From Chloroflexia bacterium (GTDB lineage Bacteria; Chloroflexota; Chloroflexia; Chloroheliales; Chloroheliaceae), in the NCBI GenBank assembly GCA_038207495.1, contig JBBQZS010000012.1:41699-105698 (forward strand): a stretch of DNA of 64,000 bases, written 5' to 3'. Within the stretch, counting starts at the first letter, position 1; the number at the start of each line of letters is the position of its first letter. The position numbers and the translations under genes are program-made. A model generated the notes under the pieces. That model saw only the letters and a list, made by a program, of their open reading frames with translations. It did not search any database and was not told the origin of the DNA. Shown here in pieces: positions 35,740 through 62,872 of this stretch.

Positions 35740-35995
35740 TCGGTGGTCAGTGGGAGGTTGTCGGAAAATTCGTAGGGGTTGGCCAATGTGTCTCCCCTGG
35801 TTGCCCGGACAACCAGAGTGTAGCCTCCCCTTTAGGGACAAGGGTTGTGCTTACGAATTCGGTTCAATTATTTATAGCCAACTTTCCATTAATTAAAACG
35901 GGACAACCACAAGGATTGTCCCCACATTGGCTGCCGGAGCAGTATTGTCTATCCCCCATCCCTACCAACAACTTACCACCGACAACTTACCACCG

Positions 35996-45873: not shown

Positions 45874-46261
45874 GATTTCCTCAACTATCAAGGATAGTAT
45901 AACATAAGAGGTTAAGCCTATTCTAGAAAAGTCTTGGAAATCATTTCAAGCTGTAGCTGAAAGAAATCTCTAGAACTAAAAATTGGAGGATTCAATTAAC
46001 AAATTTAGCGGTCATATAACTGCTGGTTTTAGGATAAACACCGGTAGCGCAACCTGAAATGGGTGGCTGGTATCCAAAATCGAATATCTAAAATCGCAAA
46101 ACTGCCAGCCCTCAGCAAATTCTTATCTCGTTACTCGTTACTTTTCAATAACCTGTTTATCCTTGTTAATCTTTTCTATTGGGCGGGGAGACCTCGACCC
46201 TACTCGGCACTTTTAACTCGTTACTTTCTTCTGACAACCGACCACTGACCACCGACAACCG

Positions 46262-47065
46262 TTATATCGGCGGTAGCTCGGCACTGATTTGTCTGGCGGT
46301 TTGAATCAGCAGCGGTAATAATTCTCCCTTGAGTTGTTCCAGGCTGGTGCGATTCACCTGGGTAGAAAGATTCAGGGCAGCAATTACCGAGCCGCGACGG
46401 TCACAAATCGGGGCGGAAATTGAGCGTAGCCCCTCCTCCAACTCCTGGTCAATCAAAGCCCAGCCCTGCATTCTAACCTCTGCCAGCATTTCCCGTAACT
46501 TGGGGGGGTCGGTCACGGTATAGGGGGTGCGGGGTATTAATTCGGCTTTCTTGAAGAAATTATCCAGGGCTTCGGGCGACAAATCCGCCAGTAACACCCG
46601 CCCCAACGAGGTAGTGAAGGCGGGCAGACGCGACCCCAGTGCCAGCGAAATGTTCATAATCCGTTTGGTAGGCACCCGCGCCACATAGACAATATCCACC
46701 CCATCCAGCACCGCCGCCGAGCAAGACTCGCGAACCTTCTCGGTTAATACTTCCATATGCGGTTGGGCCACCTCCGGGAAAGAGAGGGTCGAAAGATAGG
46801 CATAACCCAGGCATAGCACGCTGGGGCGCAAAGTAAATTTCCGCTCGTTCTGGGCCACATAGCCCAATTCTTCCAGGGTAATCAGGAAACGACGGGCGGC
46901 GGCTCTGGTCATACCCGTTTCTTTGGCTACTTCGCTCAAAGTCAGCGAAGGTTTTTCCCTGGAAAATGCCTTGATTACCGCCAGACCCCGCTCTAAAGAA
47001 TTGACAAAATCAGGGTTCTTGTCCTTTTCCACTTTTATATCGTTTTCCCCTAGCATTACACTCAT
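46262..47065 (-). CDS. pcaR: IclR-family regulator, PcaR/PobR subgroup
   Basis: FVNSLERGLAVI, LTLSEVA..TG.TRAAARRFL.TL, GSRLPA..TSLGRVLLA, DQELEEGLRSI. Confidence 0.88.
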   Translation of the reverse strand: MSVMLGENDIKVEKDKNPDFVNSLERGLAVIKAFSREKPSLTLSEVAKETGMTRAAARRFLITLEELGYVAQNERKFTLRPSVLCLGYAYLSTLSFPEVAQPHMEVLTEKVRESCSAAVLDGVDIVYVARVPTKRIMNISLALGSRLPAFTTSLGRVLLADLSPEALDNFFKKAELIPRTPYTVTDPPKLREMLAEVRMQGWALIDQELEEGLRSISAPICDRRGSVIAALNLSTQVNRTSLEQLKGELLPLLIQTARQISAELPPI

Positions 47066-47130
47066 AGCCTAAAATCCTAACTGTGTGGTTAACGGTTGTT
47101 ATACTAAGTCCTGGTAAGTAGTGATTAAAG

Positions 47131-47180
47131 GTAGGGGTGGGTTTATAACCCACCCGGACGGGTTTGAAACCCGCCCCTAC
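47131..47180. repeat. REP-like palindrome doublet (GTAG...CTAC)
   Basis: GTAGGGGTGGGTTTATAACCCACCC-GGACGGGTTTGAAACCCGCCCCTAC. Confidence 0.75.
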
Positions 47181-47348
47181 CCATCTTTTCGTATTGTAGT
47201 CAGCCGTACTTAGTATTAGTCGTTGGTTGTCGGTATTATCACTAACAACTATATAGTATAACCTAAAATAATGAACCAGATTCGTAGGGACGGTGGTCGT
47301 GTTAACCAGGGCGACAGAGTGGAGCCTCCCCTTTCCTGTGCATCCTTG

Positions 47349-48377
47349 TTAATTCTTTTCCGACGACTTTACAGGCAACCAGCGACTAATCGGGAAAACC
47401 TCTAGACTGAATTGCCGCTTGAGCAAGCCCCACAGCCCTTCCGGGGCGAACAACATCGTAATAACGGCGATAGCTCCCAGGATTATCAAAGCCCACTCGC
47501 TCAGGTCGGTCAAACCCTCGCGCAGGAAGTAAAAAACTATAGTGCCGACAATTGGCCCCTCGATAGTACCAATACCACCAATAACCACAATAAAAATCAT
47601 GAAAGCCGTCCACTGTGGGCTAAAGGCGGCATCCGGCGTAATCCGCAACTGGTTCAGGTATATCAACGCGCCCACCACGCCCGTCACCCCGGCGCATAAA
47701 ACATATACGAATAACTTCATCCGATTTGTATTAATTCCCAGGCTTCCGGCGGCAACCTCGGCATCCCGAATAGCGGTCAGACCCAAACCCACCCGCGAAC
47801 GCATCAACCAGAACACCAGAGCGGTGGCCCCAATCCCGATTGCTACCGCCAACATATAGGTCACAAGCTCGCGGGTGTCAGGGTCAAAATCGGCGACATT
47901 CAGGGTGCGCCCATAACCACCGCGTAACCACTCCACATTATTTGTCACCAGCAGCCGAAAGACCTCGGCAATTACCCAGGTTCCAACCGCAAAATAACCC
48001 CCCCGCAGCCGAAACAATAGCCAGGAAGCGGGCAGAGCCAGCACCGCCGCCACTATCCCCGCCATCACAAAACCAAGAATCAAGGGTAACTGCAAATCGT
48101 CTGCCACCACAAACAGGCTATAGCCACCCAGCCCAATCCAGGCCTGTTGCCCAATTGAAAGCATTCCGGCATAGCCCGCCAGCAAATTCCACATCTGGGC
48201 CAGGGCCAAATAGCTCAGAAAATCCACCGCATTCCGCATCAGGCCCGCCCCCGCCCAGAGTGGCCCGGTAAGTAGCACTACTACCACTATCCCACTGATT
48301 AGGGCGAACCACCTCTCCGGTATCCGGCGAAGTTTAGGAATATCTGTCACTACTGGCGTTATTTCCGATTTAAGCAT
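47349..48377 (-). CDS. HAAT-type ABC transporter permease (LivM-like)
   Basis: WNLLAGYAGMLSIGQ, LRGGYFAVGT, AIRDAE.AA..LGI, GGIGTIEGP. Confidence 0.9.
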   Translation of the reverse strand: MLKSEITPVVTDIPKLRRIPERWFALISGIVVVVLLTGPLWAGAGLMRNAVDFLSYLALAQMWNLLAGYAGMLSIGQQAWIGLGGYSLFVVADDLQLPLILGFVMAGIVAAVLALPASWLLFRLRGGYFAVGTWVIAEVFRLLVTNNVEWLRGGYGRTLNVADFDPDTRELVTYMLAVAIGIGATALVFWLMRSRVGLGLTAIRDAEVAAGSLGINTNRMKLFVYVLCAGVTGVVGALIYLNQLRITPDAAFSPQWTAFMIFIVVIGGIGTIEGPIVGTIVFYFLREGLTDLSEWALIILGAIAVITMLFAPEGLWGLLKRQFSLEVFPISRWLPVKSSEKN

Positions 48378-48386
48378 CCCTAACTC

Positions 48387-49259
48387 CTAAGCTTCGCGGG
48401 TGCGGGCAAACAACCCGGTTGGGCGCACCACCAATACCAATAAAGTGAGCAAATGCCCGGTAAGCTGAAACCAGCCGGGATTAATCTGCGCCCCGATACT
48501 CTGGGCCAGCCCCAACAATAGCCCACCCACAAAACTGCCCCACAAGCTGCCTAAACCACCAATAATTACCGCCTCGAAAGCGAAAATCAGGCGAGCGGGG
48601 CCGTCCGAAGGGGCAAAGGTGGTGCGAATCCCCAGCAATACCCCGGCAATCGAAACCAGGGCCAGCGAAATCCCCATCGCAATCGCGTACATCTTGCGGC
48701 TGTCAATCCCCATAATTTCGGCGGTAGCGGCATCGTCCGAAGTCGCCCGCAAAGCCCGCCCTAAACTGGTACGCCCCAGCAAGGCTTGCATCCCAAACAT
48801 CACCGCCACCGTTATCGAAAGAGTTATCAGGGGTAGAATTCCCACCGCGATATTGCCGCCAAGTTGCAGGCTGGCAGTCTCGACGCTTCCGGCATCCAGC
48901 CGTTTGTTATCGGCCTTGAAGCCTAATAGCAGGGCATTTTGCAGAATAACCGAAAGGCCAAATGTTACTAATAGCGGCGGGAGCGGCCCTTTGCCCAACG
49001 TGCGATTGAGCATGCCAACCTGGAACAGCATTCCGATGCCGAAGAAGGCCGGAATAACGATTATCAGGCTCAAGAAGGGCGAGATGCCTAGCGATTGGGT
49101 TAAAACCAATCCGAGATAGGCCGCACAGATTATCAAATCGCCATGCGCCAGATTGACCAGCCGCATCACCCCGAAGATTAGCGATAAACCCATCGCAAAC
49201 AGGGCATACAGGCTACCCAGCAAAATCCCCTGTAACACTACCGTAATTACTGTCTCCAT
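48387..49259 (-). CDS. HAAT-type ABC transporter permease (LivH-like)
   Basis: GLSLIFGVMRLVNLAHG, GRALRAT, IIGGLGS; likely ATG at 49259. Confidence 0.9.
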   Translation of the reverse strand: METVITVVLQGILLGSLYALFAMGLSLIFGVMRLVNLAHGDLIICAAYLGLVLTQSLGISPFLSLIIVIPAFFGIGMLFQVGMLNRTLGKGPLPPLLVTFGLSVILQNALLLGFKADNKRLDAGSVETASLQLGGNIAVGILPLITLSITVAVMFGMQALLGRTSLGRALRATSDDAATAEIMGIDSRKMYAIAMGISLALVSIAGVLLGIRTTFAPSDGPARLIFAFEAVIIGGLGSLWGSFVGGLLLGLAQSIGAQINPGWFQLTGHLLTLLVLVVRPTGLFARTREA

Positions 49260-49264
49260 CCAAG

Positions 49265-49990
49265 CTATACTCCAAAATATGCCTGAGAAATTTGTTCCGG
49301 CCTCAAGTCGGCAGGTTGCCCCTGCAAGCTCACGCGCCCCTCCAGCAAACAATACACTCGGTCAGCCACTTGCAAGCTGCGGCTAACGTCCTGCTCCACG
49401 ATTATCAGGGTCGTACCGGAACGGGCGATGTCTTTGACCACGTTATAGATATCTTTCACAATAATCGGGGCTAAACCGAGCGAGATTTCGTCCATCAACA
49501 GCAAGTCTGGGTTGTTCATCAAAGCCCGCCCAATCGCCAACATCTGCTGCTGCCCGCCCGAAAGGTTAGTCCCCGAAACATTAGCCCGTTCTCTGAGTAC
49601 CGGAAAAAGCTGATAAACTTTTTCGAGGTTCCAGGGGCCTTTACGGTTGCTATAGGCTCCGATTTTAAGATTTTCGCTGACCGACAGGCTCGGAAATATT
49701 TTGCGACCTTCCGGCACTAACGAAATCCCTAATTTGGTTAGTTGGTGGGCGGCTACTCCTCTGGTGGCCTTATTCTGATAGTTAATCTGACCCTGTTTGA
49801 CGGGCACTTCGCCCGAAATCGCCCGTAACAGGGTGGTTTTACCCGCCCCGTTAGCCCCGATTATAGCGATAGTTTCGCCCTGCCCTACCTGAATACTAAC
49901 CTCAAACAAGGCTTGAAGCTCCCCATAAAATACGTTGACTTGCTCTACCGTTAGAAGTTGTTGGTTATTGGTTGTTGGTTGTTGGTTCAC
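49265..49990 (-). CDS. HAAT-type ABC ATPase (LivF-like)
   Basis: GANGAGKTT, LSGGQQQMLAIGRALM. Confidence 0.92.
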   Translation of the reverse strand: MNQQPTTNNQQLLTVEQVNVFYGELQALFEVSIQVGQGETIAIIGANGAGKTTLLRAISGEVPVKQGQINYQNKATRGVAAHQLTKLGISLVPEGRKIFPSLSVSENLKIGAYSNRKGPWNLEKVYQLFPVLRERANVSGTNLSGGQQQMLAIGRALMNNPDLLLMDEISLGLAPIIVKDIYNVVKDIARSGTTLIIVEQDVSRSLQVADRVYCLLEGRVSLQGQPADLRPEQISQAYFGV

Positions 49991-49992
49991 CC

Positions 49993-50712
49993 TTATTCCA
50001 CCCCCAGATAGATTTCCTGCAATTCGCGGCTGGCTAAAACTTCGGCGGGGGCACCTTCGGTTAACTTCTTACCGAAATTTATCACCACAATTCGGTCAAC
50101 CGCCGAGGCCAAAGCCTGGATAATATGTTCAATCCAGATAATAGTCACGCCCGTTTTCTTTATATTGTCTATTACTACCAGTAGTTCCTGGACTTCGTGC
50201 TGGGTGAGGCCACCCGCAATTTCGTCCAGTAGCAACAATTTTGGGGCAGTTGCCAGGGCGCGAGCCAGTTCCAGCCGTTTGCGTTCCAACAGGCGTAATT
50301 TGCTGGCAGGAAGGTTGGCTTTATCCAGCAAATCGGTAGTGCTTAGAACTTCCTGACACAAGTCCCGCGACTCATGAATAGATTTATTCCGCCCGTAAGT
50401 TGCTCCCACCAGCACATTCTCGTAAACGCTCATGCCGGAAAAGGGGCGGGGTATCTGGTAGGTGCGCCCGATACCGCCCCGACAACGTTGGTAGGCGGGA
50501 ATATTGGTTACGTCCTGTCCCTCATAGAGGATGCGCCCCGCCGACACCGGGAAATCCCCCGTAATCAGGCTGAACATGGTGGTTTTGCCCGCCCCGTTCG
50601 GCCCCAGGATACCCAACGCCTCCCCCGGCGCAACGCTAAAGGATAGCCCGTCTATAACCTGTAGTTTTCCAAAGGCTTTGGAAACTTCGTGTAATTCTAA
50701 TAAAGGAGCCAA
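49993..50712 (-). CDS. HAAT-type ABC ATPase (LivG-like)
   Basis: GPNGAGKTT, LELARALA, LLDEIAGGL; probable TTG start at 50712 (the longer ORF-track start is repeat DNA). Confidence 0.88.
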   Translation of the reverse strand: MAPLLELHEVSKAFGKLQVIDGLSFSVAPGEALGILGPNGAGKTTMFSLITGDFPVSAGRILYEGQDVTNIPAYQRCRGGIGRTYQIPRPFSGMSVYENVLVGATYGRNKSIHESRDLCQEVLSTTDLLDKANLPASKLRLLERKRLELARALATAPKLLLLDEIAGGLTQHEVQELLVVIDNIKKTGVTIIWIEHIIQALASAVDRIVVINFGKKLTEGAPAEVLASRELQEIYLGVE

Positions 50713-50789
50713 ACCTAACCCCCTGACCCCCTTCCCGGATACAGGGAAGGGGGAACTCGAACAACTAACAACCAATAACGAACAACCAA

Positions 50790-52079
50790 CTACCGCGACC
50801 AGCCCATCAGTTGGGCTTTGCCCGTCGCCGGAATATTACTGGCGGTAGTGTTATTAACAATGCTTAAATCCCAGGGAAACTCTGTCCCCTTGCCCCATTG
50901 CCCACCGACCAGCGGGGTTTTGGCGACGTTCGGGGTTGGCCCTTTGTCCCACGAAACCGGGCCGACGATAGTGTTAAGGTTGGTGGCCTTGAGAGCATCC
51001 CGGATGAGTTTCTTGTCGTCTACATTGCTGGTGCGGGACAGCACATCCGCCGCTACCTCGAACAGCGAATGCACATAGCCAAGCGGCTGCGTCCACTGCT
51101 TGCTGGTATCCTTTTTGTAGGCGGCAGCCAGGTCAGCCGAGCTTGCCCCGGTAAGCGAGGATTTGAAGGGATGGCTGGGACTCCACCAGACTTCGGTAGA
51201 AATACCATCGCCCAAACCGCCGCTCAAGCTGGTGACCGCCGAGGGGAACAGGGCGGCTTTGGCTACCGTGACCATCTTGGGTTTAAAGCCTTGCTGGGCC
51301 GCCTGAGTCATAAAGGTTTGGAGGTCGGGCGGAATAACCACCCCTGTGACAATCTCGACCCCGGCACTTTTGAAGGCACTAATCTGGGCCGAGAAGTTAT
51401 CGGTCAGGTTCTGGTAACGACCTGGGTCAACTATCTTATAACCTGCGGCGGTTAAAGCGGGCGGGAAGCCAAGTTTGGCATCGCTCCAGGCAAGACCGTC
51501 ACTGTCGTTGGGCCATAACGCCCCCACCACTTTGTTAGTTGAGACACTTGCCCAAATATTGGTAAACACCGCGATTATATCTTCCAGACCCCAGAAGTAG
51601 TGATAGGTCCAGCTATAACCTTTATCGCTTACCTTTGGGTTGCGGAACATCCAGGGCTGCCAGGGAGCCATCGTGGAGATACAGGGTACGCCGTTGGCCT
51701 CACAGGTGTCGCTGACCGGGTTGGTGGTTTCGGGGGTAGATGCCACCAACACCAGGTCCACTTTGTCTTTGAGAATCAGGTCGGCGGTAACAGTTCCGGC
51801 CCGGTTGGTATCGGATTGGGTATCTTTGACGATAATCTGAACTTTACGCCCGTTCAGTTTTTTCTCCATTGCGTCCTGCACGCCTTTGGTGATAAAGGCA
51901 TCGGCCTCGCCAAACCCGGCTAATGGCCCGGTTTGAGGGCTGACATAGCCGATTTTTATAGCTCGGCTACCGCCAGAACTACTGTCGTCACCACAGGCGG
52001 CGAGAGTTCCGGCCAGGGTCAGGGCAGCGGTTGCCCCGGCGGATGTCTTGATAAAAGACCGACGTGAAAAATAGCTCAT
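50790..52079 (-). CDS. ABC substrate-binding lipoprotein (HAAT family), Tat signal
   Basis: SRRSFIK twin-arginine motif plus LAAC lipobox; IKIGYVSPQTGPLAGFG. Confidence 0.9.
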   Translation of the reverse strand: MSYFSRRSFIKTSAGATAALTLAGTLAACGDDSSSGGSRAIKIGYVSPQTGPLAGFGEADAFITKGVQDAMEKKLNGRKVQIIVKDTQSDTNRAGTVTADLILKDKVDLVLVASTPETTNPVSDTCEANGVPCISTMAPWQPWMFRNPKVSDKGYSWTYHYFWGLEDIIAVFTNIWASVSTNKVVGALWPNDSDGLAWSDAKLGFPPALTAAGYKIVDPGRYQNLTDNFSAQISAFKSAGVEIVTGVVIPPDLQTFMTQAAQQGFKPKMVTVAKAALFPSAVTSLSGGLGDGISTEVWWSPSHPFKSSLTGASSADLAAAYKKDTSKQWTQPLGYVHSLFEVAADVLSRTSNVDDKKLIRDALKATNLNTIVGPVSWDKGPTPNVAKTPLVGGQWGKGTEFPWDLSIVNNTTASNIPATGKAQLMGWSR

Positions 52080-52215
52080 CTTCGCGCTCCTCCATTTGCG
52101 TTCGTTGTACTTCGTTATACAGTTGTTGTCGAAAGTCAGAATAAAGAAAAAAGAATAAAGGAGTAAGAATAGAAAGACTTTAACTCGTTACTCGTTACTC
52201 GGCACTCGTTACTTC

Positions 52216-53427
52216 CTAGAGTCTCTCCACTACCAACGCCACCCCCTGCCCGACCCCAATGCACATAGTAGCCAGACCGTAGCGGCCTTTGCGCCGCCCC
52301 AGCTCATAAATCAGGGTTGTAGCCAAACGCGCCCCACTGCAACCGAGCGGGTGTCCCAGGGCAATCGCGCCGCCGTTGACGTTTACCTTTTCGGGGTCTA
52401 GCCCTAATTCGCGCACACAGGCCAAACTCTGGCTGGCGAAGGCTTCGTTTAGCTCGATTAAATCCAGATCATCGGCGGTCAGTCCGGCGCGGGCCAGGGC
52501 TTTACGGCTGGCGGGTATCGGGCCTAGCCCCATTACTGAAGGGTCAACCCCGGCAACGGCGGTTGAGACTATGCGCGCCAGTGGTTTTAAGCCCAACTCT
52601 GCCGCTCTGGTAGCTGACATTAGCACTAAAGCCGCCGCCCCGTCGTTAATGCCGCTGCTGTTCCCGGCGGTGACTGAGCCATCCTTGCGGAAGGCGGGTT
52701 TGAGTTTGTTCAGGGCTTCCAGGGTGGTAGAGGGGCGGGGATGCTCGTCCTGGGCGAAAAGTAGCGGTTCGCCCTTCTTTTGCGGCACTTTGACCGGGAC
52801 AATTTCAGCCTCGAATTTGCCTTCAGCCATCGCTTTACCCGCTTTTTGTTGCGATTGATAAGCAAAAATATCCTGGTCTTCCCGGCTGACCTTGTGCTGT
52901 TCGGCGACGTTCTCGGCGGTTTCGCCCATAGTGTAGGGGTAATATAGCTCTGACAGCCGCGAGTTGATAAAACGCCAGCCCAGAGTAGTATCCTGTAAAA
53001 CTGGATTGCCGCGCTGATAGGCTTCCTCGGCCTTGCCCATTACAAAGGGGGCGCGGGTCATGCTCTCCACCCCACCCGCAATAAAAATCTCGCCGTCCCC
53101 GCTCATAATGGCACGGGCGGCATCGTTAATCGCCTGTAAACCACTGCCGCACAGCCGATTGACCGTCACCCCCGCCACGCTGGTGGGCAGTCCGGCTAAC
53201 AACAGACTCATGCGGGCCACGTTGCGATTGTCTTCCCCGGCCTGATTGGCACAACCAAAATAAACGTCCTCGATAGCGGCAGGGTCAATTCCGGCGCGTT
53301 TGACCGCCTCGGCAATCGCCACCGCCCCCAGGTCGTCGGGTCGCACCGTTGCCAACGTCCCGCCATATTTGCCGATTGGAGTGCGGGCAGCGGATACGAT
53401 TACGGCTTCCTCAAGCTGTTTATTCAT
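52216..53427 (-). CDS. pcaF: 3-oxoadipyl-CoA thiolase
   Basis: [55 protein letters not shown]. Confidence 0.9.
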
Positions 53428-54478
53428 TTTGTTTCCCCTCAAAACTTCTAATCAGAATTTCCCTGACCCCGGCAAGGTCTACGGTTTTGGGATTCCAGGG
53501 CGGCGGACTCATCACCAACCGGGCGGCCTCGTCAATCCCACTTTCGGGCATACCCAACGCCGCCAGATTATTTGGCGCACCCAACCGAGCGGTCAGGTTA
53601 AAAATACCAGTGACAGCATCGGAGGCATTCAGCGAACGGGCTATCTTCGCCATCGCTTCACGGGCGGTCTTGCGGTTGTACCAGACCACCTGCGGCAATA
53701 CTACCGAGTGGGTTTCGGAATGAGGCAGGTTAAAAGTGCCACCCAGAACGTGACAGATACGATGATGCAGAGCCGTCCCGACTGTGGCTAACACAACGCC
53801 CCCCAGATAGGCCCCGTATAGAGCTTGTTCGTACCCTTCGTGGTCTTGATTATCATCCACAATGCGGGTTAAACCTTGCGCCAGAGCCCGACTACCTTCC
53901 TCCGCCATAATATCGGATATGGGGTTGGCGGCCTTGCCATAAAGGGCCTCCACGCAATGAGCCAGCGCGTTCAGACCACTGGTCACTGCCAGGGCGGGCG
54001 GCATACTGTAGGTCAGTTCCGGGTCATAAATTACGGTTTTGGGTAAGGCCCGCAAATCGCGCCCGGTTTTCTTGCGCCCCTCACTGGTCAGGCCAAAAAT
54101 CGGGGTCATTTCCGAGCCGGAAAAGGTGGTGGGAATAGCAATCAGGGGTAGCTCAGTTGCCACTGCCAACGCTTTGCCCAAACCTATCGCCGAGCCGCCG
54201 CCCAATGTCACGAAGCAATCAGCCTGAACTTCGCTCACAATTCCCAGATTGGCTTGCACCGTTTCGGTGGGAACGTGCTGCACCACTTTGTCAATTAATC
54301 CGGCGTAGCGAGGGCCGAGTTGCTGCGAAACTTCCGCCACATATTTACTCGCCGACCCGGTGGCGATAAGAATGACCCGTTTGCCCTCTAACCGATCCAC
54401 CTCTTCGGCTAACTTGCTCAACATGCCAGTCCCGAACAGCACTCGACCCGGCAAGGCCTCGTAAGTAAAATTTTTCAT
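53420..54478 (-). CDS. maleylacetate reductase (Fe-ADH family)
   Basis: [54 protein letters not shown]. Confidence 0.9.
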
Positions 54479-55245
54479 TTGCGCCCTTCACTGCGGCTTT
54501 GTAAAGCCCGTAATATTTCCAACTCTTCGGAATTTGGCGGTTGAGTTTCGCGTAAATCGCTGGCAATTTTCAAATCCCAGGCAGTGGCGGCTTTTACCTG
54601 CTCGACGGTTATACCCGGATGCAAATCGGTCAAAGTCAATTCTTTGGTTTCAGGGTCAGGCCGCAAAATCCCCAACTGGGTAATAACGGCGGTTGGCCCT
54701 TTGGTGTGGATGCCCAACTTCTGGCGCGAGTCCCCGCCCGTGAGGTGGCCCACCGAAGTCATAAAATCCAGCTTTTCCACAAAAGCGCGAGGATTCTGGC
54801 GCAAGATTATAATCACCTCTTTGGTGCAGGTGGCGATTTCGGGCGCACCACCCGCCCCCGGCAAGCGCACCTGGGGCTTATCGTAAGAGCCGATTACGGT
54901 TGTGTTGATGTTGGCGAAGCGGTCAACCTGAGCCGCCCCCAAAAAGCCCACGTCAATCCGCCCCGCCTGTAGCCAGTAGTTAAAAACTTCAGGTAGGGGA
55001 ATAACAAAATCGGCGGTCTCGGCTAACTCCCCGTCGCCAATCGAAAGCGGCAGGCGGGTAGGTTTCGCCCCCATCGTGCCGGACTCGTAAATCAGCACGC
55101 ACTTTGGGGCATGGGTGGCGCGGGCCAGATTCGCGGCGGCACTCGGCAAGCCAATCCCCACAAAACAGAGCGTATTATTTTTTAGCATCTGGGCGGCGGC
55201 TACCGTCATCATCTCATCGGAAGTATAGGTCAGGGTTTGCGCCAT
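54475..55245 (-). CDS. pcaJ: 3-oxoadipate CoA-transferase beta subunit (GctB/CatJ type)
   Basis: FVGIGLPS, LIYESG, GAAQVDRFANINTT, RLPGAGGAPEIA. Confidence 0.88.
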   Translation of the reverse strand: MAQTLTYTSDEMMTVAAAQMLKNNTLCFVGIGLPSAAANLARATHAPKCVLIYESGTMGAKPTRLPLSIGDGELAETADFVIPLPEVFNYWLQAGRIDVGFLGAAQVDRFANINTTVIGSYDKPQVRLPGAGGAPEIATCTKEVIIILRQNPRAFVEKLDFMTSVGHLTGGDSRQKLGIHTKGPTAVITQLGILRPDPETKELTLTDLHPGITVEQVKAATAWDLKIASDLRETQPPNSEELEILRALQSRSEGRK

Positions 55246-55361
55246 AAAAAGCTCCTGGAAAATAGTTGTTGGTTACTAGTTGTTGGATTATAGTTGTCAG
55301 AAAAACTGGTAGCCAGTAGCTTCTAGGATAAGTTTTTCGATTTCCTACTAACAACCAATAA

Positions 55362-56195
55362 CTAAGAACCAACAACCGAGATACTTTCTGCTTCTGACAT
55401 AATATGTTCCTGCATCCAGGCCAGAAAAGTTTCGCGCTCTTTGCTGATGTTTTCCCAATCCTGATAGAAGCGGTTATTTCGGACGGTATAATCCTGGGCA
55501 TAAGAGGGGAAGCTACCCCCTGGCACATGAGCAATTGCCGTAACCACCCAACTCGGTAGTATTACCGCGCCGGGGCGAATTTCGAGCTTTTCGACCACTT
55601 CCTCCACCGTAATTATCGAGCGGCGGGCGGCTAATATCGCTTCCTTCTGGATGCCCACGATGCCCCAAATCATCACGTTCCCGGCTTTGTCGGCCTGTTG
55701 AGCGTGAATAATGCTGACATCGGGATTGACTGCCGGAACCGCCGCCAGCTTTTCCCCGGTGAAGGGACATTCTACCGTAGCTATACGACTATTATATTTC
55801 GGCAAATCGGTGCCTGAATAACCCCGCAAAATAGCGAAAGGCAAGTTACTGGCTCCGGCAACGTAGGCGTTGGCTAACCCGGCGTGGCTATGTTCTTCGA
55901 TTTCGAGCGGGCGGGGCCAACCGTTTTCGATAGCATCCCGAAAGCGATACAACGAACCAACCCCCGGATTACCACCCCACGAAAATATCAGCTTACGAAC
56001 GCAGCCCATCCCGATTAGCTGGTCGTAAATCAGGTCGGGGGTCATTCGAATCAGGGTCAAATCTCGCTTTTGTTGGCGGATGATTTCGTGTCCGGCGGCG
56101 AAAGGAATCAGGTGGGTAAAGCCTTCCAATGCTACCTTATCACCATCATTTATTAGACTGCGAACCGCTTCGGAGAGCGCGAGAAATTCTGCCAT
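55362..56195 (-). CDS. pcaI: 3-oxoadipate CoA-transferase alpha subunit (GctA/CatI type)
   Basis: EGFTHLIPFAAGHEIIRQ, RMTPDLIYDQLIG, WGGNPGVGSL. Confidence 0.88.
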   Translation of the reverse strand: MAEFLALSEAVRSLINDGDKVALEGFTHLIPFAAGHEIIRQQKRDLTLIRMTPDLIYDQLIGMGCVRKLIFSWGGNPGVGSLYRFRDAIENGWPRPLEIEEHSHAGLANAYVAGASNLPFAILRGYSGTDLPKYNSRIATVECPFTGEKLAAVPAVNPDVSIIHAQQADKAGNVMIWGIVGIQKEAILAARRSIITVEEVVEKLEIRPGAVILPSWVVTAIAHVPGGSFPSYAQDYTVRNNRFYQDWENISKERETFLAWMQEHIMSEAESISVVGS

Positions 56196-56383
56196 ATTTT
56201 GGCCTCACTAACGGTTTTTGGTTATTAGTTGTTGGTTGTCGGAAAAAGATTAACAAGGATAAACAGGATATTTTCAGATTTCTTATTCTTACTCTTTTAT
56301 TCTGACTCCTAAATCTTAACTACCTCAACTCAGCTCTTTTATTTCGTTACGTTTTCTAATAACGAACAACTAATAACGAACAA

Positions 56384-57847
56384 CTATCTTGGATAATAGG
56401 GCGGAATATTGGCATCCACATTTACCCAGACGGATTTAACTTCGGTATATTGATGCATAACCTCAAAGCCCATTTCGCGCCCGTAGCCGCTAGAGCCCAC
56501 TCCCCCAAAGGGTGAGCCTGGGTTGGCCCGTTTGTAACAGTTTATCCAGACCATCCCGCTGCGCATTGCTCCGGCAATTTTGTGGGCGCGTTGCAAATCG
56601 CGTGTCCAGAGTCCACCGCCCAGGCCATATTCGGTGCCGTTGGCGATTGCCAGGGCTTCCTCGTCGGTTTTGAAGGTCGTGACCGATACAAACGGCCCGA
56701 AAACTTCTTCCTGTGATACCCGGTCAGTCGGTTTGGCGCGGACTACGGTTGGCTCGATATAGTAACCCTTCGCCAGTTCGGGACGGTCAGGGGCTTTACC
56801 GCCGATGATAATCTCGCCGCCCTGCTCCTGGGCAATCTGGCAATAACTCATTACCCGGTCACGGTGTTGGGCCGAAGTTACCGGGCCCATCTCGGTAGTG
56901 GGGTCGAGCGGGTTGCCAATTTTAATGGATTTAGCCAGAGTAATAAATCTTTCCAGAAACTCTTCGGCGATAGATTCGTGCAACACCAGCCGCGACCCGG
57001 CGATACAGGCTTGCCCCTGATTATGGAAAATAGCAAAGGCCGAACCGTTCACTGCTTCGGTCAGGTTGGCATCGCTAAAAACAATATTCGCCCCTTTGCC
57101 ACCAAGCTCAAGTTGCACCCTTTTCAAGTTCCCGGCAGAAGCCTGAACAATCCGGCGACCCACGGCGGTTGAACCAGTGAAAGCCACCTTGTTGATGTTA
57201 GGATGCTCGGCGATATACTGCCCCGCCACTCCGCCTAACCCCGGCACGATATTCACCACGCCATCCGGGAAACCCACTTCCGCCATCAACTCGGCCATTC
57301 GCAGGGAAGAAAGCGGGGTGATTTCGGCGGGTTTCATTACCACACAGTTCCCCGCCGCCAGGGCCGGGGCCATCTTCCAACTGGTGAACATCAGGGGGAA
57401 GTTCCAGGGTACGATTTGCCCCACGATGCCCACAGGCTGGCGCAAAAGATAGTTCAGAAATCCGGTATCCACCGGGACAACTGAACCTTCATACTTATCC
57501 GCCATTCCGCCAAAATAACGGAAAGTAGCGGCGGTACGGGGCACATCCAACCCTTTGGAGTCACGCAGGGGGTGCCCGGTGTCCAGGCTTTCCAGGCGGG
57601 CCAATTCATCGGCGTGGGCTTCCACCGCGTCCGCCAGCTTTAGCAGCAAGCGACCACGATCCGCCGCCGAGGTTCTGCTCCATTTCGGGAAAGCAGCCTG
57701 AGCCGCCTTGACCGCTTTATCAATATCGGCAGGCCCCGCCATTGCTACGTCCACAATCTTGCTATTGTCATGCGGATTATAGGTTGGCAGAGTTTCGCCA
57801 TCTTCGGCCTCGACAAATTGACCGTTAATAAAAAGCTTGGATTGCAT
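56384..57847 (-). CDS. aldehyde dehydrogenase, 4-hydroxymuconic semialdehyde dehydrogenase-like (HapE/PnpD type)
   Basis: PWNFP, FTGST, ELGGK, HNQGQACIAGSR, EEVFGP; directly follows the dioxygenase genes; likely ATG at 57847. Confidence 0.85.
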   Translation of the reverse strand: MQSKLFINGQFVEAEDGETLPTYNPHDNSKIVDVAMAGPADIDKAVKAAQAAFPKWSRTSAADRGRLLLKLADAVEAHADELARLESLDTGHPLRDSKGLDVPRTAATFRYFGGMADKYEGSVVPVDTGFLNYLLRQPVGIVGQIVPWNFPLMFTSWKMAPALAAGNCVVMKPAEITPLSSLRMAELMAEVGFPDGVVNIVPGLGGVAGQYIAEHPNINKVAFTGSTAVGRRIVQASAGNLKRVQLELGGKGANIVFSDANLTEAVNGSAFAIFHNQGQACIAGSRLVLHESIAEEFLERFITLAKSIKIGNPLDPTTEMGPVTSAQHRDRVMSYCQIAQEQGGEIIIGGKAPDRPELAKGYYIEPTVVRAKPTDRVSQEEVFGPFVSVTTFKTDEEALAIANGTEYGLGGGLWTRDLQRAHKIAGAMRSGMVWINCYKRANPGSPFGGVGSSGYGREMGFEVMHQYTEVKSVWVNVDANIPPYYPR

Positions 57848-57890
57848 CACTTCCCCCATCAAAATTTTTACCAAGTAAATAATTATCGTC

Positions 57891-57975
57891 GTAGGGACAA
57901 CCCTTGTGGTTGTCCTGTATCAACCCTGGACAGGCAGAGCGAAGCCTCCCCTTTGGGGACAAGGCCAGTCCCTAC
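57891..57975 (+). repeat. 85-bp composite REP-like element
   Basis: GTAGGGACAACCCTTGTGGTTGTCC...CAGGCAGAGCGAAGCCTCCCCTTTGGGGACAAGGCCAGTCCCTAC; close inverted copy at 62873-62955. Confidence 0.8.
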
Positions 57976-58028
57976 AAATTACCCGGTATAGGGCAAACAT
58001 ATTGGTCTGCCCCTACCGAGATAGACTA

Positions 58029-59018
58029 CTAGAAACTAACCGGGTTGATTGGAGTTTCACCCGCCTCGATTTCGTACACGATTTTTGGTGAGCCATTCTC
58101 CCAGACCAATAGCATCGAGCGTTTGGGCGAATACCCCTGGTGGCGGCAGTCGGCGGGCATAGCAGCCATGTCCCCGGCCTTCATAATGACCCTGGCGCGA
58201 GGTGCGCCCGTCATCTTATCGCCCACGTTCCAGTGAATTTCGTCTGACATCTGGAAGAACCACTCCACCCGGTCATTGCCGTGAATAACGGGCAGAATAT
58301 GTTCCTCAGTGGTAGGGCAGCAATAGCTGTACTTGACCACCGAAGTAAACGAGGGATTCCAGGTAACATCGGAGCGTGACAGATAAGCATGCAGGTTGAA
58401 GGCATGCACTTCGCCTTCAAAACCCGGCTCAGGATGCAATTCCGGCTGGTCCTGGGAGACATCGGCAAAAGCCCGGTTGACCGGATAGCCATTCTCATCA
58501 CTTCGCATCGCCAAATCGTCCTTCAGTCCGACGCAGCGAGTAGCTAACTGGCGTACCCGATGGGTAGCGGCGGGGTTCGAGCCGTGTTTGCGACCATAAG
58601 GGCTGCCCGTTTCCTGGGGAGCGGCAAAGGGGTCATAGCCTTCGTTCGTCCAATCTTCCAGCATTTCGGCAAAGGTGTTGCGGATTAAATCGGAAGGATG
58701 GTTTTCCAGGTAATCTACTCCAGATTTAACATAATCGGCGTTGTAACTTCCGGCGTAGATGTCTACGGTGCCGTAGTGGTTGCAAGTGCCAAAAACGGTG
58801 TCGAAATGTACCCAGCCATAGAAAAAGCCCCAGGCCACATCCCGAATAAGCGGGCGCAGGAAGCTACCAATATCTATCGTGTGGCTGCCTTTGGGCCAGC
58901 GGATATGGGCGAAATATTCGTCGCGGTGGAAGGAAAAATTACCCAGTTTGAAATCCCGATAGCCATAAATCTCATGGGGCTCGGAAGCAGTAACATCAAT
59001 AAGAGTCGCGCTCATCAT
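58029..59018 (-). CDS. hydroquinone 1,2-dioxygenase large subunit (HapD/HqdB type)
   Basis: RDEYFAHI.WP.G, RDVAWGFFYGWV.FD, WNPSFTSV, cupin Fe ligands IHGNDRVE...RHQGYS. Confidence 0.88.
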   Translation of the reverse strand: MMSATLIDVTASEPHEIYGYRDFKLGNFSFHRDEYFAHIRWPKGSHTIDIGSFLRPLIRDVAWGFFYGWVHFDTVFGTCNHYGTVDIYAGSYNADYVKSGVDYLENHPSDLIRNTFAEMLEDWTNEGYDPFAAPQETGSPYGRKHGSNPAATHRVRQLATRCVGLKDDLAMRSDENGYPVNRAFADVSQDQPELHPEPGFEGEVHAFNLHAYLSRSDVTWNPSFTSVVKYSYCCPTTEEHILPVIHGNDRVEWFFQMSDEIHWNVGDKMTGAPRARVIMKAGDMAAMPADCRHQGYSPKRSMLLVWENGSPKIVYEIEAGETPINPVSF

Positions 59019-59042
59019 TCTCTCCTTTCAAGAAATTTTGGT

Positions 59043-59552
59043 TTAGCGGGTCTGGCAAATTTCAGCCCATTTTTGCACCGACAGCTCGCCCAGGCAGGTC
59101 TGTAATACCACCACCGCTGGAGCTTCAGTCCGGAACTGATAGGCGGAATTGGCCGGAAGCAGAGCTTGATGGCCGCGTTTAATCTTAATCCAGCCCATCT
59201 TAGCCCCTACTGGCTCGCCACCCACCAGAATTGCGCCGTTTTTCTCGGCGGGGGCCAGGGCGGTGTCCAGCTTAACCAGATGAATTTCGACCTCTTTGTC
59301 CATACAAAGGGCAAATTCATCGTGAGCGCAGGTATACCAGGGGGAAACTCCCTCGGCCCGGATGGCTTCTAGTACGTAAATCTGGTTGATGCCAAAAACT
59401 ACTTTTTCGTAGGGTTTGGAGTTGCTACAAATCTCAAAAACGTTGGAGAAGGCGTAATTTTTCGGGTTGTCATTAATGACCTCTACCCCACCTTTTTCGT
59501 AATGCTCCAGTGAGCCAAATTCGGTCTGGTATCGCTGCTCCGTTGTCAGCAT
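59043..59552 (-). CDS. hydroquinone 1,2-dioxygenase small subunit (HapC/HqdA type)
   Basis: TEFGSLEHYEKGGVEVINDNPKNYAFSNVFE...KPYEKV...KWAEICQ; likely ATG at 59552. Confidence 0.88.
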   Translation of the reverse strand: MLTTEQRYQTEFGSLEHYEKGGVEVINDNPKNYAFSNVFEICSNSKPYEKVVFGINQIYVLEAIRAEGVSPWYTCAHDEFALCMDKEVEIHLVKLDTALAPAEKNGAILVGGEPVGAKMGWIKIKRGHQALLPANSAYQFRTEAPAVVVLQTCLGELSVQKWAEICQTR

Positions 59553-59571
59553 CGTTGGTTCTCCTTTCAAA

Positions 59572-60018
59572 CTACTTGTTATCTTTATTTAGCCAGGGGT
59601 AACGCTCTGTATCTGCCCCGGCATAATCCGGGTCAAGATAAATAAACACCCGTTGGATTTTGAAATCCCGGATTTCAAAAACATCACACCAATTTCCGGC
59701 ATGGGTAACGCCCGCCCTCCATTGTGTGCCATTTTTGGTAGTGCCGTAGCTGGTGCCTTCCACTACCACTGTATCGCCGCTGTGAATGTAATTGAAGTAA
59801 GCGTAATCGTGACGGATGCCACTTAGAATTGAACCTAAATCAATGAAGAGTCGCTCGAACTCGGCCCGCCCGTTTGCCAGACCCCATTTGGGAAAGTAGA
59901 CCTGAGCATCGTCGGCGAACAAATCAAAAATCCCTTCACCTCGGTCTAGCCTTTTCAGGTATTCCAGGGCAATGGCTTTGCGTTGTTCGTCGGTCATCGT
60001 CTGCGTTGACAATGCCAT
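59572..60018 (-). CDS. SnoaL/NTF2-like protein
   Basis: LFADDAQVYFPKWG...VVVEGTSYG...WCDVFEIRDFKIQRVFIYLDPDY. Confidence 0.75.
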   Translation of the reverse strand: MALSTQTMTDEQRKAIALEYLKRLDRGEGIFDLFADDAQVYFPKWGLANGRAEFERLFIDLGSILSGIRHDYAYFNYIHSGDTVVVEGTSYGTTKNGTQWRAGVTHAGNWCDVFEIRDFKIQRVFIYLDPDYAGADTERYPWLNKDNK

Positions 60019-60127: not shown

Positions 60128-60197
60128 TTTGTTCGTATAGCGGACAAATGTGCGTATATCGTACTTTAATTTTAGGGCATGAATTTTGGTTTGTCAA
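60128..60197 (-). promoter_or_regulatory. sigma70 promoter with tandem PcaR/PobR-like IclR operators
   Basis: Minus strand TTGACA (60197-60192), 17 bp, TAAAAT (60174-60169); boxes GTGCGTATATCGTAC (60150-60164) and TTTGTTCGTATAGCGGACAAA (60128-60148). Confidence 0.75.
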
Positions 60198-60579
60198 TAG
60201 GAACAACGGAATAAAAAGGGTTTCTGGTTGTTAGTTGTTGGTTGTTAGTTGTTGGTTGTTAGTTTGTAGGGGTAGACCATGTGTCTACCCTGAGAATGAC
60301 TCATACAAAGGCAGACATGTCCCCTACCGTTAAATTCCTGCGAACCTATCAATTACATCCAGGCTTTATTTAATTGTTCACCAAAGAGGCAGAGCGTAAG
60401 CTTCCAACTTGTTAGACAGAGTACACAGGGAAAATTAAACCGCCAAGTCGCCAAGAACTCCAAGTAATTTCATTTTTTCTTGGTGACCTGGTGACCTGGC
60501 GGTTTGTACACTTATTTTCAGGAGTCAGGGGGAGGGCTAAAGGTTTTATTCAGCCTTCATCCCTCCTCCTTCGTCCTTC

Positions 60580-61959
60580 TTAGCTATTAGTCGTGATGTT
60601 AGCCCCATCCTGTGGTTTGGTGCCGTTCTCAACCCAACCCCGAACCGAGTTCCAGGCGGAATTAATTTGGCCGGGGGCAAAGTAACAGTGGGCTGGGCCG
60701 CTCTTGGAGAGGTCAGCCAGGTTTACCGGAGCAGCGTCTACCACCTGTTGGGCAAAGTTCCCCAGATTATTCTGGGCGGCTACTTTGGCCCGAAGTAGCG
60801 GCTCTTGCTCGTAGGGAACGAGCGGGTCAATGGTGTTGTGGATACTGAGTAGTTTGGTAGCAAAGCTGCCGGAAGGGGTAAACCAGTTGTTGATGTAATT
60901 TAGTGCGCCAGAACTAGCCTCAAAGCGTTGGATTCCGGCGTTCAAAGCCACATCATCATCCGAACCCTTGTATTCCTTGCCAACGTTAGAGTAGGGCAAA
61001 CCCCCTGACGTTTCAAGTAAATCAACCGTGCCCGAACTATCCCCGCCCAGGGCTGTAATGAAAGAAATAGGGTCGGGATTTGCCCCGGTTATGACCGAAA
61101 TCTGGCGGATAATATTGGCAAATTGAGGGTTTTTGGCCGCAACCGTAAAAAGGGACACTACCGAAGTGACGGTGTTAGTCAGACTGGAGTCAGGGTTAGG
61201 GGTAACTACATCGTCGGCGTTTGGTAACTTAAACGGCGCGCCTAGCGGTTTGGTGAAATAGCTATAGACCAGCGCGAAATCGGTGAGATAACGGATTTCC
61301 TCGTACCAACCTGCGACTACCCCACACAAAGTAATTGTTCCGGTGTAATCGTTGGGATATTTCTCCACCAGACCCATACTTATATTCCCACCCATCGAAA
61401 CACCGACCAGATATGTTCGCTTTGTACCCATATAGCTAACCAGCCGATGTAACAGATTGGTATGGAACATTCCGTCCTTGACGGCATAACCCAACTTGCT
61501 ATATTCGGAATGACCAGTGGCAAAGCCCTGGAGGAAAGCCGACTGGGTAAAAAACAACTCCTCATTGGCATGTCTTGCCAGCTTTAAGCCAGTTGGCCCC
61601 TCGGTTGGCCCGGTGTAGCCGTGTGCATATAATACGAACTGGCGATTCCAGTTTGCCGGGAAGCGCAGGGAAAACTCCGCTCCTTCCAGTTTGCCCGCAA
61701 TATAAACGGTGCCCTTGGCATCATAGGATATTGCGACGTTGGTAACCTGTAGTCCAGGGCGCAAAATAAGGCCCGGTTTATCAAGTTCCATCTGGTCAGA
61801 AGGTGGCAGATTAGTCAAAGTCAGGTGGGTCACGGCCTGGGAAAAGAGTTCCTCAATGCTGAATTGCTCAGATTCCTGGGCCTGGGCAATTGGCAGCACG
61901 AACAGGGACATCATAAACAATATGACCCAGAATAACCTTTGTGGTTTATATTTCAACAT
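60580..61959 (-). CDS. secreted alpha/beta hydrolase (esterase-like)
   Basis: Signal peptide ending AQA; YAHGY oxyanion segment, GVSMGG nucleophile, HNTIDPLV, AHCYF. Confidence 0.75.
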   Translation of the reverse strand: MLKYKPQRLFWVILFMMSLFVLPIAQAQESEQFSIEELFSQAVTHLTLTNLPPSDQMELDKPGLILRPGLQVTNVAISYDAKGTVYIAGKLEGAEFSLRFPANWNRQFVLYAHGYTGPTEGPTGLKLARHANEELFFTQSAFLQGFATGHSEYSKLGYAVKDGMFHTNLLHRLVSYMGTKRTYLVGVSMGGNISMGLVEKYPNDYTGTITLCGVVAGWYEEIRYLTDFALVYSYFTKPLGAPFKLPNADDVVTPNPDSSLTNTVTSVVSLFTVAAKNPQFANIIRQISVITGANPDPISFITALGGDSSGTVDLLETSGGLPYSNVGKEYKGSDDDVALNAGIQRFEASSGALNYINNWFTPSGSFATKLLSIHNTIDPLVPYEQEPLLRAKVAAQNNLGNFAQQVVDAAPVNLADLSKSGPAHCYFAPGQINSAWNSVRGWVENGTKPQDGANITTNS

Positions 61960-62005: not shown

Positions 62006-62701
62006 CTAAATTTTGTCGGCGTTGAAGCTTACTACCGCGAATTGACCGCTAATGTTGCCATAGGCCGTAACCTTGTAGGTGCCAGAGGTCCCTGGGAAGT
62101 AAAAACCTATCCAGGGAGAGGCTGGCATCGTGCCATCACCATTGGCGTAGTAATAGCCTACGCCCAACACTGAGCCAATTCCATCGGTAATCCAGGTTGA
62201 AATTTTCTCACCGGGCGACCAGTTTGCCCCGTTAAAGGTTACAACTACTATCGATTCGTCCAGGTTAAAGCTACGGGTTACTTCCATCGTGGGTTTTAGC
62301 AGGGTAAAGTTGACGATTCCCTGATTGCCAGAATTGTCCCCTTGTACCGTAACCGCCCAGGCTCCAGGAGTACCTGCCAAAATTGTAGTAGCGGGGGTGA
62401 AACCACTGAAGGAACCGTCACCTCCGGCGTTAAGATAGCCCAGATCTATTACGGTTCTACCCGGACCGGAAGCCCAGATTGCAATTCTCTCTCCACCACT
62501 AAAACCGCTCCCACTAAGACTGAGCGGTTGACCATAGCGAACCGTGCTACTGGCAAGACTAAACGAAGCCGCCGCGTGGGCAGGTTTGGCAGTAAAAGTT
62601 ACTAGAAACAGACCCACTAGCAAGACCATAACGAACAGCAAATTCAGGCCCCGACCTTGCCCGACTCGTGAAGGTTGGCGAAATAAACTTTGGTGCATCA
62701 T
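62006..62701 (-). CDS. secreted protein with two beta-rich repeats
   Basis: Signal peptide ending AHA; repeated GSGFSGGERIAIW / GANWSPGEKISTW. Confidence 0.7.
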   Translation of the reverse strand: MMHQSLFRQPSRVGQGRGLNLLFVMVLLVGLFLVTFTAKPAHAAASFSLASSTVRYGQPLSLSGSGFSGGERIAIWASGPGRTVIDLGYLNAGGDGSFSGFTPATTILAGTPGAWAVTVQGDNSGNQGIVNFTLLKPTMEVTRSFNLDESIVVVTFNGANWSPGEKISTWITDGIGSVLGVGYYYANGDGTMPASPWIGFYFPGTSGTYKVTAYGNISGQFAVVSFNADKI

Positions 62702-62872
62702 TGCTCCTTTCTGTTTTCGCAGATTTCAAATGACTGGTATTTTGGTAGTCGCGCCACTGTGAGGTGCACACAGGGTATTAATGATTCTTTAATGTGATAA
62801 AAATATTATAGCACAGGATGTTGGAGAAAGGATGAAGGATGAGGGATGAAGAATGAAAAAGCAGGGAATTTC

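Follow-up and report, generated by a model that had tools for sequence, protein, structure and literature searches.

A predicted hydroquinone catabolic operon with its own ABC importer on a Chloroflexota contig

Bacteria that open the ring of hydroquinone convert it to 4-hydroxymuconic semialdehyde and then, by way of maleylacetate, 3-oxoadipate and 3-oxoadipyl-CoA, to succinyl-CoA and acetyl-CoA (PMC3727088, PMC3222310). The closest described systems are the PnpCDEF(G) enzymes of Pseudomonas sp. WBC-3 (structures 4zxa and 4go3), which form the hydroquinone branch of 4-nitrophenol degradation, and HqdAB of Sphingomonas sp. TTNP3 (5m21) together with HapCDEF of Pseudomonas fluorescens ACB, whose clusters serve alkylphenol or 4-hydroxyacetophenone degradation beside hydroquinone-generating enzymes. 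Type II dioxygenases of this kind accept chlorinated and alkylated hydroquinones (PMC3222310), and the presence of homologues in Variovorax and Burkholderia has been on record since 2011-2013 (PMC3222310, PMC3727088). Here we describe a cluster of 14 intact, co-oriented open reading frames (ORFs) at 46262-60018 on the minus strand of a 64-kb window, by which we mean the whole stretch of DNA that was analysed (64,000 nucleotides of contig JBBQZS010000012.1, assembly GCA_038207495.1, from a Chloroflexia bacterium). Most likely this cluster is a chromosomal catabolic operon through which hydroquinone would enter the central metabolism of an uncultured member of the Chloroflexota, as would, probably, hydroquinones with simple substituents.

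The likeness to the WBC-3 system is close, as the window encodes the same type of dioxygenase, with a large subunit that is 62% identical and carries identical iron ligands, together with a PnpE-type dehydrogenase and a maleylacetate reductase (MAR) that would act in the same chemical order. Pieces are both missing and added. The window has no counterpart of pnpA, pnpB or the hydroxyquinol dioxygenase PnpG, whereas it contains an ATP-binding cassette (ABC) importer, a CoA-transferase, a thiolase and a SnoaL-like gene, probably comes under control of the IclR/PcaR type and sits in a Chloroflexota host; the pnp genes of WBC-3 are regulated by the LysR-type proteins PnpR and PnpM (PMC5603801). 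With the TTNP3 and ACB systems the window shares the type II alpha2beta2 enzyme, the adjacent subunit genes and a small subunit that is 55% identical, but it lacks their hydroquinone-generating partners.

The ORF list of the window returned the 14 minus-strand genes of the original prediction at exactly its coordinates, and each gene family that it had named was reproduced in our profile searches. Moreover, all 14 ORFs are full length relative to solved or curated homologues. The several overlapping stop and start codons that had been claimed are fewer than stated, since two pairs do overlap (the genes for CoA-transferase subunit B and MAR by 4 nt, those for MAR and the thiolase by 8-23 nt) but three further pairs only adjoin, at a distance of 1-9 nt. 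The series is interrupted by four internal gaps of 116-188 nt, and a gap of 283 nt lies ahead of iclR. The internal gaps hold heptamer repeats and hairpin elements, with no recognisable promoters, and Rfam and tRNA scans of the window gave no match. We infer from sequence conservation a 13-gene operon and a separately transcribed iclR, with a single PcaR-type operator. All features of the locus for which coordinates are given below, its regulatory sites included, lie on the minus strand.

The host had been taken to be a member of the Chloroflexota, and several observations agree on this. The genes gyrB (1737-3647) and topA (35996-38245) lie in the same window as the cluster, and GyrB and HqdB are encoded on one contig of 111,097 bp. 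The best named relatives of GyrB are metagenome-assembled genomes (MAGs) of Chloroflexota/Chloroflexia (69-70% identity) and Sphaerobacter (65%), Chloroflexota making up 15 of the 17 organism-named matches. The GC content at third codon positions (GC3) is 0.53-0.645 in the cluster as against 0.58-0.65 in gyrB, topA and the ribonucleotide reductase gene, and overall GC is about 0.53 as against 0.54-0.74 in the proteobacterial loci, most of which are at 0.60 or above. In addition, the source run comes from a sediment metagenome, and unitigs assembled from it independently form a tiling path over 35-55 kb, from topA through the cluster, with k-1 overlaps between them and an even depth of 20-25x. 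The density of heptamer tandem repeats is 3.4 per 10 kb within the cluster as well as around it, compared with 0.38 per 10 kb in 80 Burkholderiales loci.

The large catalytic subunit of the central enzyme, of the HqdB/PnpD/HapD type (58029-59015, 328/329 aa), contains the PnpCD_PnpD_N domain (PF18191) at 181.9 bits against a cutoff of 25, and over residues 8-329 it aligns end to end with PnpD (4zxa_W, 438 bits, 62.4% identity to the WBC-3 protein) and HqdB (5m21_B, 429 bits). Its residues H246, N248, E252 and H293 align with H256, N258, E262 and H303 of PnpD. These four PnpD residues are presumably the Fe(II) ligands of the cupin domain, a numbering checked against the alignment only, and the list reportedly goes back to Liu et al. 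in 2015. The H-x5-E...H iron motif announced for this subunit is present as H246, E252 and H293, with N248 in addition. The small subunit, of the HqdA/PnpC/HapC type, is encoded on the same strand 24 nt away (59043-59570, a 175-aa ORF whose true start is likely the ATG at 59552); it scores 193 bits against 5m21_A and 188 bits against 4zxa_A, and is 54.7% identical to HqdA of TTNP3 over 159 aligned residues. Both subunits are full-length orthologues of PnpCD and HqdAB, in agreement with the proposed relation to HapCD. We infer that HqdAB is a type II two-subunit hydroquinone dioxygenase, and as an Fe(II) enzyme it would open the ring to yield 4-hydroxymuconic semialdehyde.

The genes that follow would carry this product to the tricarboxylic acid cycle. 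Directly downstream of hqdB lies a predicted 4-hydroxymuconic semialdehyde dehydrogenase of the PnpE/HapE type (56384-57874; 487 aa from the likely ATG start at 57847), which would form maleylacetate. This aldehyde dehydrogenase (ALDH) has an Aldedh domain (E 1.5e-179) and scores 802 bits to PnpE (4go3) and 820 bits to 4o6r, as against 468 bits for the next ALDH class; in the search with NCBIfam models it reached no equivalog cutoff. Maleylacetate would be reduced to 3-oxoadipate by the putative MAR, a member of the Fe-ADH family (53420-54478) that scores 348 bits against 3jzd; against two maleylacetate reductases of solved structure it reaches 301 bits (3w5s) and 294 bits (3hl0), and other Fe-ADHs stay at 111 bits or below. 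A two-subunit CoA-transferase of the glutaconate-CoA-transferase-like family, comprising subunit A (55362-56195; CoA_trans domain and a match to 1poi_A) and subunit B (54475-55245; CoA_trans, E 8.5e-43), would then produce 3-oxoadipyl-CoA. In Azospirillum and Streptosporangium, relatives of about 70% identity carry the source annotation 3-oxoadipate CoA-transferase, and the enzyme of the window probably works as a 3-oxoadipate:succinyl-CoA transferase in the manner of PcaIJ, though it stands outside the PcaIJ subfamily. Finally, the predicted 3-oxoadipyl-CoA thiolase PcaF (52216-53442, likely start at the ATG at 53427) passes both TIGR02430 (605.6 bits, cutoff 597) and NF006551 (613.6 bits, cutoff 605), and would release succinyl-CoA and acetyl-CoA.

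The first gene of the operon (59572-60018) encodes a SnoaL-like protein of 148 aa with an NTF2 fold (Pfam SnoaL_2, E 5e-10). It shares 87-93% identity with its counterparts in sister contigs and 66% with the Variovorax cluster copy, and among PDB sequences its matches are weak and go to polyether epoxide hydrolases; a single-sequence structure model was rejected at a mean pLDDT of 39.9. In the Variovorax clusters, a 582-aa FAD_binding_2 flavoprotein lies between hqdB and the SnoaL-like gene (11046-12794 in locus L019); for this lineage, that is a possible hint of a further oxidative step connected with the SnoaL-like protein.

The importer is a complete set of the HAAT/Liv type, with one binding protein, two permeases and two ATPases. 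The substrate-binding protein (50790-52079) matches Peripla_BP_6 and TAT_signal and has a LAAC lipobox; the ATPases (49993-50775 and 49265-49990) both match ABC_tran, and the permeases (48387-49352, likely start 49259, and 47349-48377) both match BPD_transp_2. The gene order is syntenic with loci L090, L082, L001 and L084 and with more than 60 Burkholderiales loci. The binding protein differs between these groups in its export signals. In the window and in all five low-GC relatives it combines a twin-arginine translocation (Tat) signal with the LAAC lipobox and a Ser/Gly linker, whereas every properly started Burkholderiales homologue has a Tat signal and an AxA signal-peptidase I site without a lipobox. 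A lipoprotein fits a host that has no outer membrane (a monoderm), and we read the lipobox as an envelope-specific refit of the same transporter. The lipid-anchored binding protein and the Liv-type transporter would together import the substrate of the pathway, for which we propose hydroquinone on the basis of gene context, as the ligand of such a protein is not readable from its sequence.

Transcription of the operon probably starts from one sigma-70-like promoter upstream of the SnoaL-like gene. A promoter-like site, TTGACA-17 nt-TAAAAT (60169-60197), lies about 150 nt upstream of this first gene, matches the consensus at 11 of 12 positions, is the best in the region and is conserved in L090 and L082. 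Directly after its -10 hexamer stand two tandem 15-mers, GTACGATATACGCAC and GTCCGCTATACGAAC, 4 nt apart (60131-60164), which form a putative PcaR-type operator and are the sole two such matches in the window. The operator of PcaR in P. putida is GTTCGATAATCGCAC (PMC12455658), and the two 15-mers match it at 12/15 and 10/15 positions. From CGCAC to the end of the second 15-mer, the sequence is near-invariant across the window, L090, L082 and L089. The sequence of L089 begins only after the first 15-mer, which is conserved in the other three. The ribosome-binding site is conserved along with the promoter and the operator, and similar PcaR-like boxes stand at the cluster heads in L001, L084, L085 and L007. 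The IclR regulator itself (46262-47065) belongs to the PcaR/PcaU/PobR subfamily (TIGR02431, 338.4 bits against a cutoff of 284.75); its scores against 2ia2 and 8eju, the latter a regulator of the Pca regulon, are 254 and 220 bits. It probably controls the operon through the two 15-bp boxes, and its likely effector would be an intermediate of the pathway, for example 3-oxoadipate.

Between the last permease gene and iclR lies a double-hairpin element of 74 nt (47125-47198), a possible transcript end, with a predicted RNA fold of -37.6 kcal/mol (z = -4.87). Its word depth in the source run is 286x as against about 25x in the flanks, so it is probably a high-copy genomic repeat, and it may end or stabilise transcripts. 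Similar GTAGGG...CCCTAC hairpins occur at 57895-57985, 60265-60330 and 35804-35925. These palindromic elements, bounded by GTAGGGG...CCCCTAC, are REP- or MITE-like.

Several points weigh against reading the locus as an operon for hydroquinone catabolism acquired by a Chloroflexota host. Among solved structures, the nearest relatives of the binding protein bind amino acids and aromatic acids, and they match it at E 1e-9 or weaker. Subunit A of the CoA-transferase falls below the PcaI cutoff and subunit B below that of PcaJ (37.5 against 128.5 bits for TIGR02429 and 45.1 against 243.55 bits for TIGR02428), so that the substrate is deduced from context and from the annotation of relatives in other genomes. 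The window encodes no enzyme that produces hydroquinone; the pathway had been called complete and self-contained, and while the genes from uptake through the thiolase are indeed present, complete must be understood as from hydroquinone onward. As regards transcription, the internal gaps of 116-188 nt could conceal further promoters, and promoter-like and terminator-like sites are as numerous in the region as expected by chance, so that the argument for the promoter rests on its conservation. Among the sequencing runs, only DNA runs contain cluster sequence. Finally, in a neighbour-joining distance tree rooted on PnpD, the window and the low-GC metagenome contigs group together inside the Burkholderiales radiation with a modest support of 52-81%; for the nesting as such the bootstrap values are 52-61%, a support so weak that the direction of transfer is not settled.

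Of the alternatives to this reading, the one that survives best concerns the substrate. The dioxygenase might act on a substituted p-diphenol such as a methyl-, chloro- or alkyl-hydroquinone, or the importer might take up a precursor or a downstream acid, for example 4-hydroxybenzoate, maleylacetate or 3-oxoadipate. Hydroquinone is uncharged and may need no importer, which counts in favour of another ligand, as do the amino acids and aromatic acids bound by the solved relatives of the binding protein. Likewise, the tolerance of type II enzymes for chlorinated and alkylated hydroquinones (PMC3222310) is in keeping with a substituted substrate. However, the tight synteny of hqdAB with the ABC genes in more than 60 species suggests that the ligand of the transporter is the substrate of the dioxygenase, and import of a precursor is difficult to reconcile with the lack of any precursor-to-hydroquinone enzyme encoded nearby. 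We therefore consider this alternative possible but rather unlikely, and retain hydroquinone as the probable substrate.

The history of the cluster was approached through its relatives. About 3,300 homologues of HqdB were retrieved at a threshold of E 1e-20, and in a scan of GTDB species representatives with HqdB we compared the best 80 of at least 536 loci. These 80 loci are all labelled Proteobacteria, mostly Burkholderiales, and include Variovorax, Ramlibacter, Pusillimonas, Piscinibacter and many MAGs, with an HqdB identity of 78% at most. Most of them have the order hqdA-hqdB-(SnoaL)-ALDH-MAR-binding protein-ATPases-permeases, some with IclR and thiolase genes as well, and one MAG cluster (L003) has canonical PcaIJ genes at the position corresponding to the CoA-transferase. 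Identity to the window is 66-82% for HqdA, HqdB and ALDH (each reaching 78-82%), 57-69% for the binding protein and 45-60% for the remaining proteins. There is no credible proteobacterial label among the GyrB matches of at least 62% identity, so that identities of up to 78-82% in the cluster, where GyrB would lead one to expect less than 62%, make an old horizontal transfer likely. Since the same architecture, importer included, is widespread in Burkholderiales at 55-82% identity, the copy in the window is probably a Burkholderiales-type module that was acquired horizontally rather than invented independently. We propose that the core hqdAB-ALDH-MAR-ABC set probably came long ago from Burkholderiales-like bacteria and was then fully ameliorated. 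The signs of domestication are the host-like codon usage, the heptamer repeats in the gaps, the lipoprotein form of the binding protein and the different type of CoA-transferase.

A different history, in which the cluster is ancestral and vertically inherited in this Chloroflexota lineage, or was passed from Chloroflexota to Burkholderiales, would account for the fully host-like composition and for the several diverged low-GC lineages that carry the cluster at 72-96% identity, the closer relatives being found in metagenomes only, with wetland and mat sites among their sources (for L001, L082, L084 and L085 the taxonomic assignment is drawn from indirect traits only, namely GC, heptamer repeats and lipobox). 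The weak tree support for the nesting also leaves room for it. Yet HqdA, HqdB and ALDH are 78-82% identical to Burkholderiales proteins, far above the cross-phylum identity of GyrB, and the best 80 of the at least 536 GTDB loci all carry proteobacterial labels, none with an identity above 78%. This history is improbable in our view, and acquisition from Burkholderiales-like bacteria is the one that we prefer.

The closest relatives also show how the locus varies. L090 and L091, from two independent metagenome assemblies, share 87-97% identity per protein with the window and have the same upstream flanking genes. Both encode an extra 291-aa intradiol dioxygenase of the hydroxyquinol/catechol type (Dioxygenase_N and Dioxygenase_C) between the thiolase and the binding protein (13924-14799 in L090), a gene also found in L082, L084, L085 and L001. 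At this position the window has a 136-nt gap (52080-52215) with about 100 nt of unrelated spacer and no gene remnant. A hydroxyquinol pathway in the window was considered and rejected, with no intradiol dioxygenase detectable anywhere in the 64 kb. Thiolase and transporter genes are absent from L092. Across the lineage, then, the hydroquinone/hydroxyquinol locus is modular, and the window holds its hydroquinone-only version. Separately, the small subunit in L090 (6688-7197) was called as two ORFs of 66 and 86 aa, although in tblastn it aligns over its full 175 residues with 94% identity. The split may reflect an in-frame stop or a frameshift, or else an error of assembly.

One could take the whole-gene deletions that separate these close relatives, namely the loss of the intradiol gene here and of the thiolase and transporter in L092, as signs of decay, and with them the splitting of the L090 small subunit by gene callers, so that the cluster would be an eroding, non-working remnant. 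We find this very doubtful, because all 14 ORFs of the window are full length against solved or curated homologues, the catalytic residues are intact, and the promoter, operator and ribosome-binding site are conserved. Least credible of all is a chimeric metagenome assembly that joined a proteobacterial cluster to Chloroflexota genes: the closest named relatives of the catabolic genes do all bear proteobacterial labels, mostly Burkholderiales, and the window does derive from a sediment metagenome, but GyrB on the same contig, a GC3 identical to that of housekeeping genes, an overall GC below the proteobacterial range, the uniform 20-25x depth of the unitig tiling, the same heptamer repeats inside and outside the cluster, a lipoprotein suited to a monoderm, and the assembly of the same cluster with the same upstream flank from two other metagenomes make it very unlikely.

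Other features of the window deserve mention. Upstream of the operon promoter lie two co-oriented genes. The product of the first (60580-61959) has 459 aa, a predicted signal peptide and a GVSMGG motif, and weakly matches alpha/beta-hydrolases; that of the second (62006-62701) has 231 aa and no family match. Both are syntenic in L090 (82-84% identity) and not in L082, and their membership of the operon was set aside, as they are syntenic only in L090, the closest relative, and lie upstream of the conserved promoter. That they release hydroquinone from esters is conceivable but unsupported.

The heptamer repeats, often with a 14-nt superperiod (AACAACC/AACTAAC, CTCGTTA, GACCACC), fill intergenic gaps across the window, at 13577-13627, 16082-16175, 27705-27732, 34743-34765, 35964-35995, 46127-46261, 49957-49987, 50760-50794, 52138-52213, 55262-55376, 56213-56386, 60227-60264, 60549-60579 and 62828-62857, and they also occur in L090, L082, L001, L089 and L092. 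We take them to resemble the STRR repeats of cyanobacteria; a literature search found no report of such heptamer repeats in Chloroflexi. A tandem repeat of another kind, 39 nt long in 2.7 copies (22504-22608), lies within ORF 22486-23121 and encodes a Pro/Gln/Asn-rich repeat in a protein without a family match.

Three ORFs (3747-4973, 10725-11516 and 19132-19647) stand out from a background of about 0.52 GC by their GC of 0.33-0.36 and their GC3 of 0.23-0.30, and are on this account probably recent foreign insertions. The first has no family match and adjoins a Uma2 nuclease gene (4992-5585), the second encodes a PLD-family nuclease with a DpnI_C domain and resembles a methyl-directed restriction enzyme, and the third stands between nrdR and the gene for a B12-dependent ribonucleotide reductase.

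If our reading of the locus is correct, the host range of two-subunit hydroquinone ring cleavage extends from Proteobacteria to Chloroflexota. Chloroflexota are abundant in sediments, wetlands and sludge and, to our knowledge, few aerobic aromatic-degradation pathways have been documented in them. A full-text literature search returned no paper linking hydroquinone dioxygenase or maleylacetate reductase with Chloroflexi/Chloroflexota, the nearest match being a mention of incomplete aromatic pathways in sponge Chloroflexi; this agrees with the original prediction that the pathway was undescribed in the phylum. These bacteria become candidate sinks for the hydroquinone that comes from arbutin, nitrophenol, paracetamol, alkylphenols and humic matter. 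The locus would also be a clean example of a catabolic module that crosses phyla and is refitted to its host with its PcaR-type operator retained.

It is tempting to speculate further, although we hold this to be doubtful, that the trio of dioxygenase, Liv-type importer and SnoaL-like protein, found in more than 60 Burkholderiales species and here in its lipoprotein form, forms a system, so far unstudied, that scavenges free hydroquinones with high affinity in soils and sediments. In this scenario the binding protein would be a receptor dedicated to hydroquinone, the first of its kind, and the SnoaL-like protein would perform an unrecognised step, for instance the tautomerisation or isomerisation of the ring-fission product, or would protect a self-inactivating dioxygenase. 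Were this so, the transfer across phyla with a refit to the envelope would show that the trait is ecologically valuable beyond Proteobacteria. The questions of the importer ligand and of the role of the SnoaL-like protein apply equally to the Burkholderiales homologues, which are far more tractable.

In their organisation, the uncharacterised hqdAB-ALDH-(SnoaL)-MAR-ABC clusters of Burkholderiales resemble the locus closely. They share with it the core gene set, its order and the five-gene importer, often a SnoaL-like protein, an IclR regulator and a thiolase, and in some cases PcaR-like boxes. They differ in having a soluble periplasmic binding protein, in a CoA-transferase that, where present, is canonical PcaIJ (as in L003), in a GC of 0.54-0.74, mostly 0.60 or more, and in the absence of the heptamer repeats. 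The novelty of the cluster stands as far as the phylum is concerned, as no description from Chloroflexota was found, and does not extend to the architecture, which is common in Burkholderiales with the importer included. In the lower part of the pathway, the comparison is with the beta-ketoadipate route, since PcaF and PcaR of the window pass their NCBIfam cutoffs and the operator half-sites resemble the PcaR box of P. putida, while the CoA-transferase is of the glutaconate type and the feed is maleylacetate, not protocatechuate or catechol. With enzymes this close to structurally solved proteins, and an architecture common in another phylum, the locus brings no new chemistry or biochemistry; it is a known pathway in a new host.

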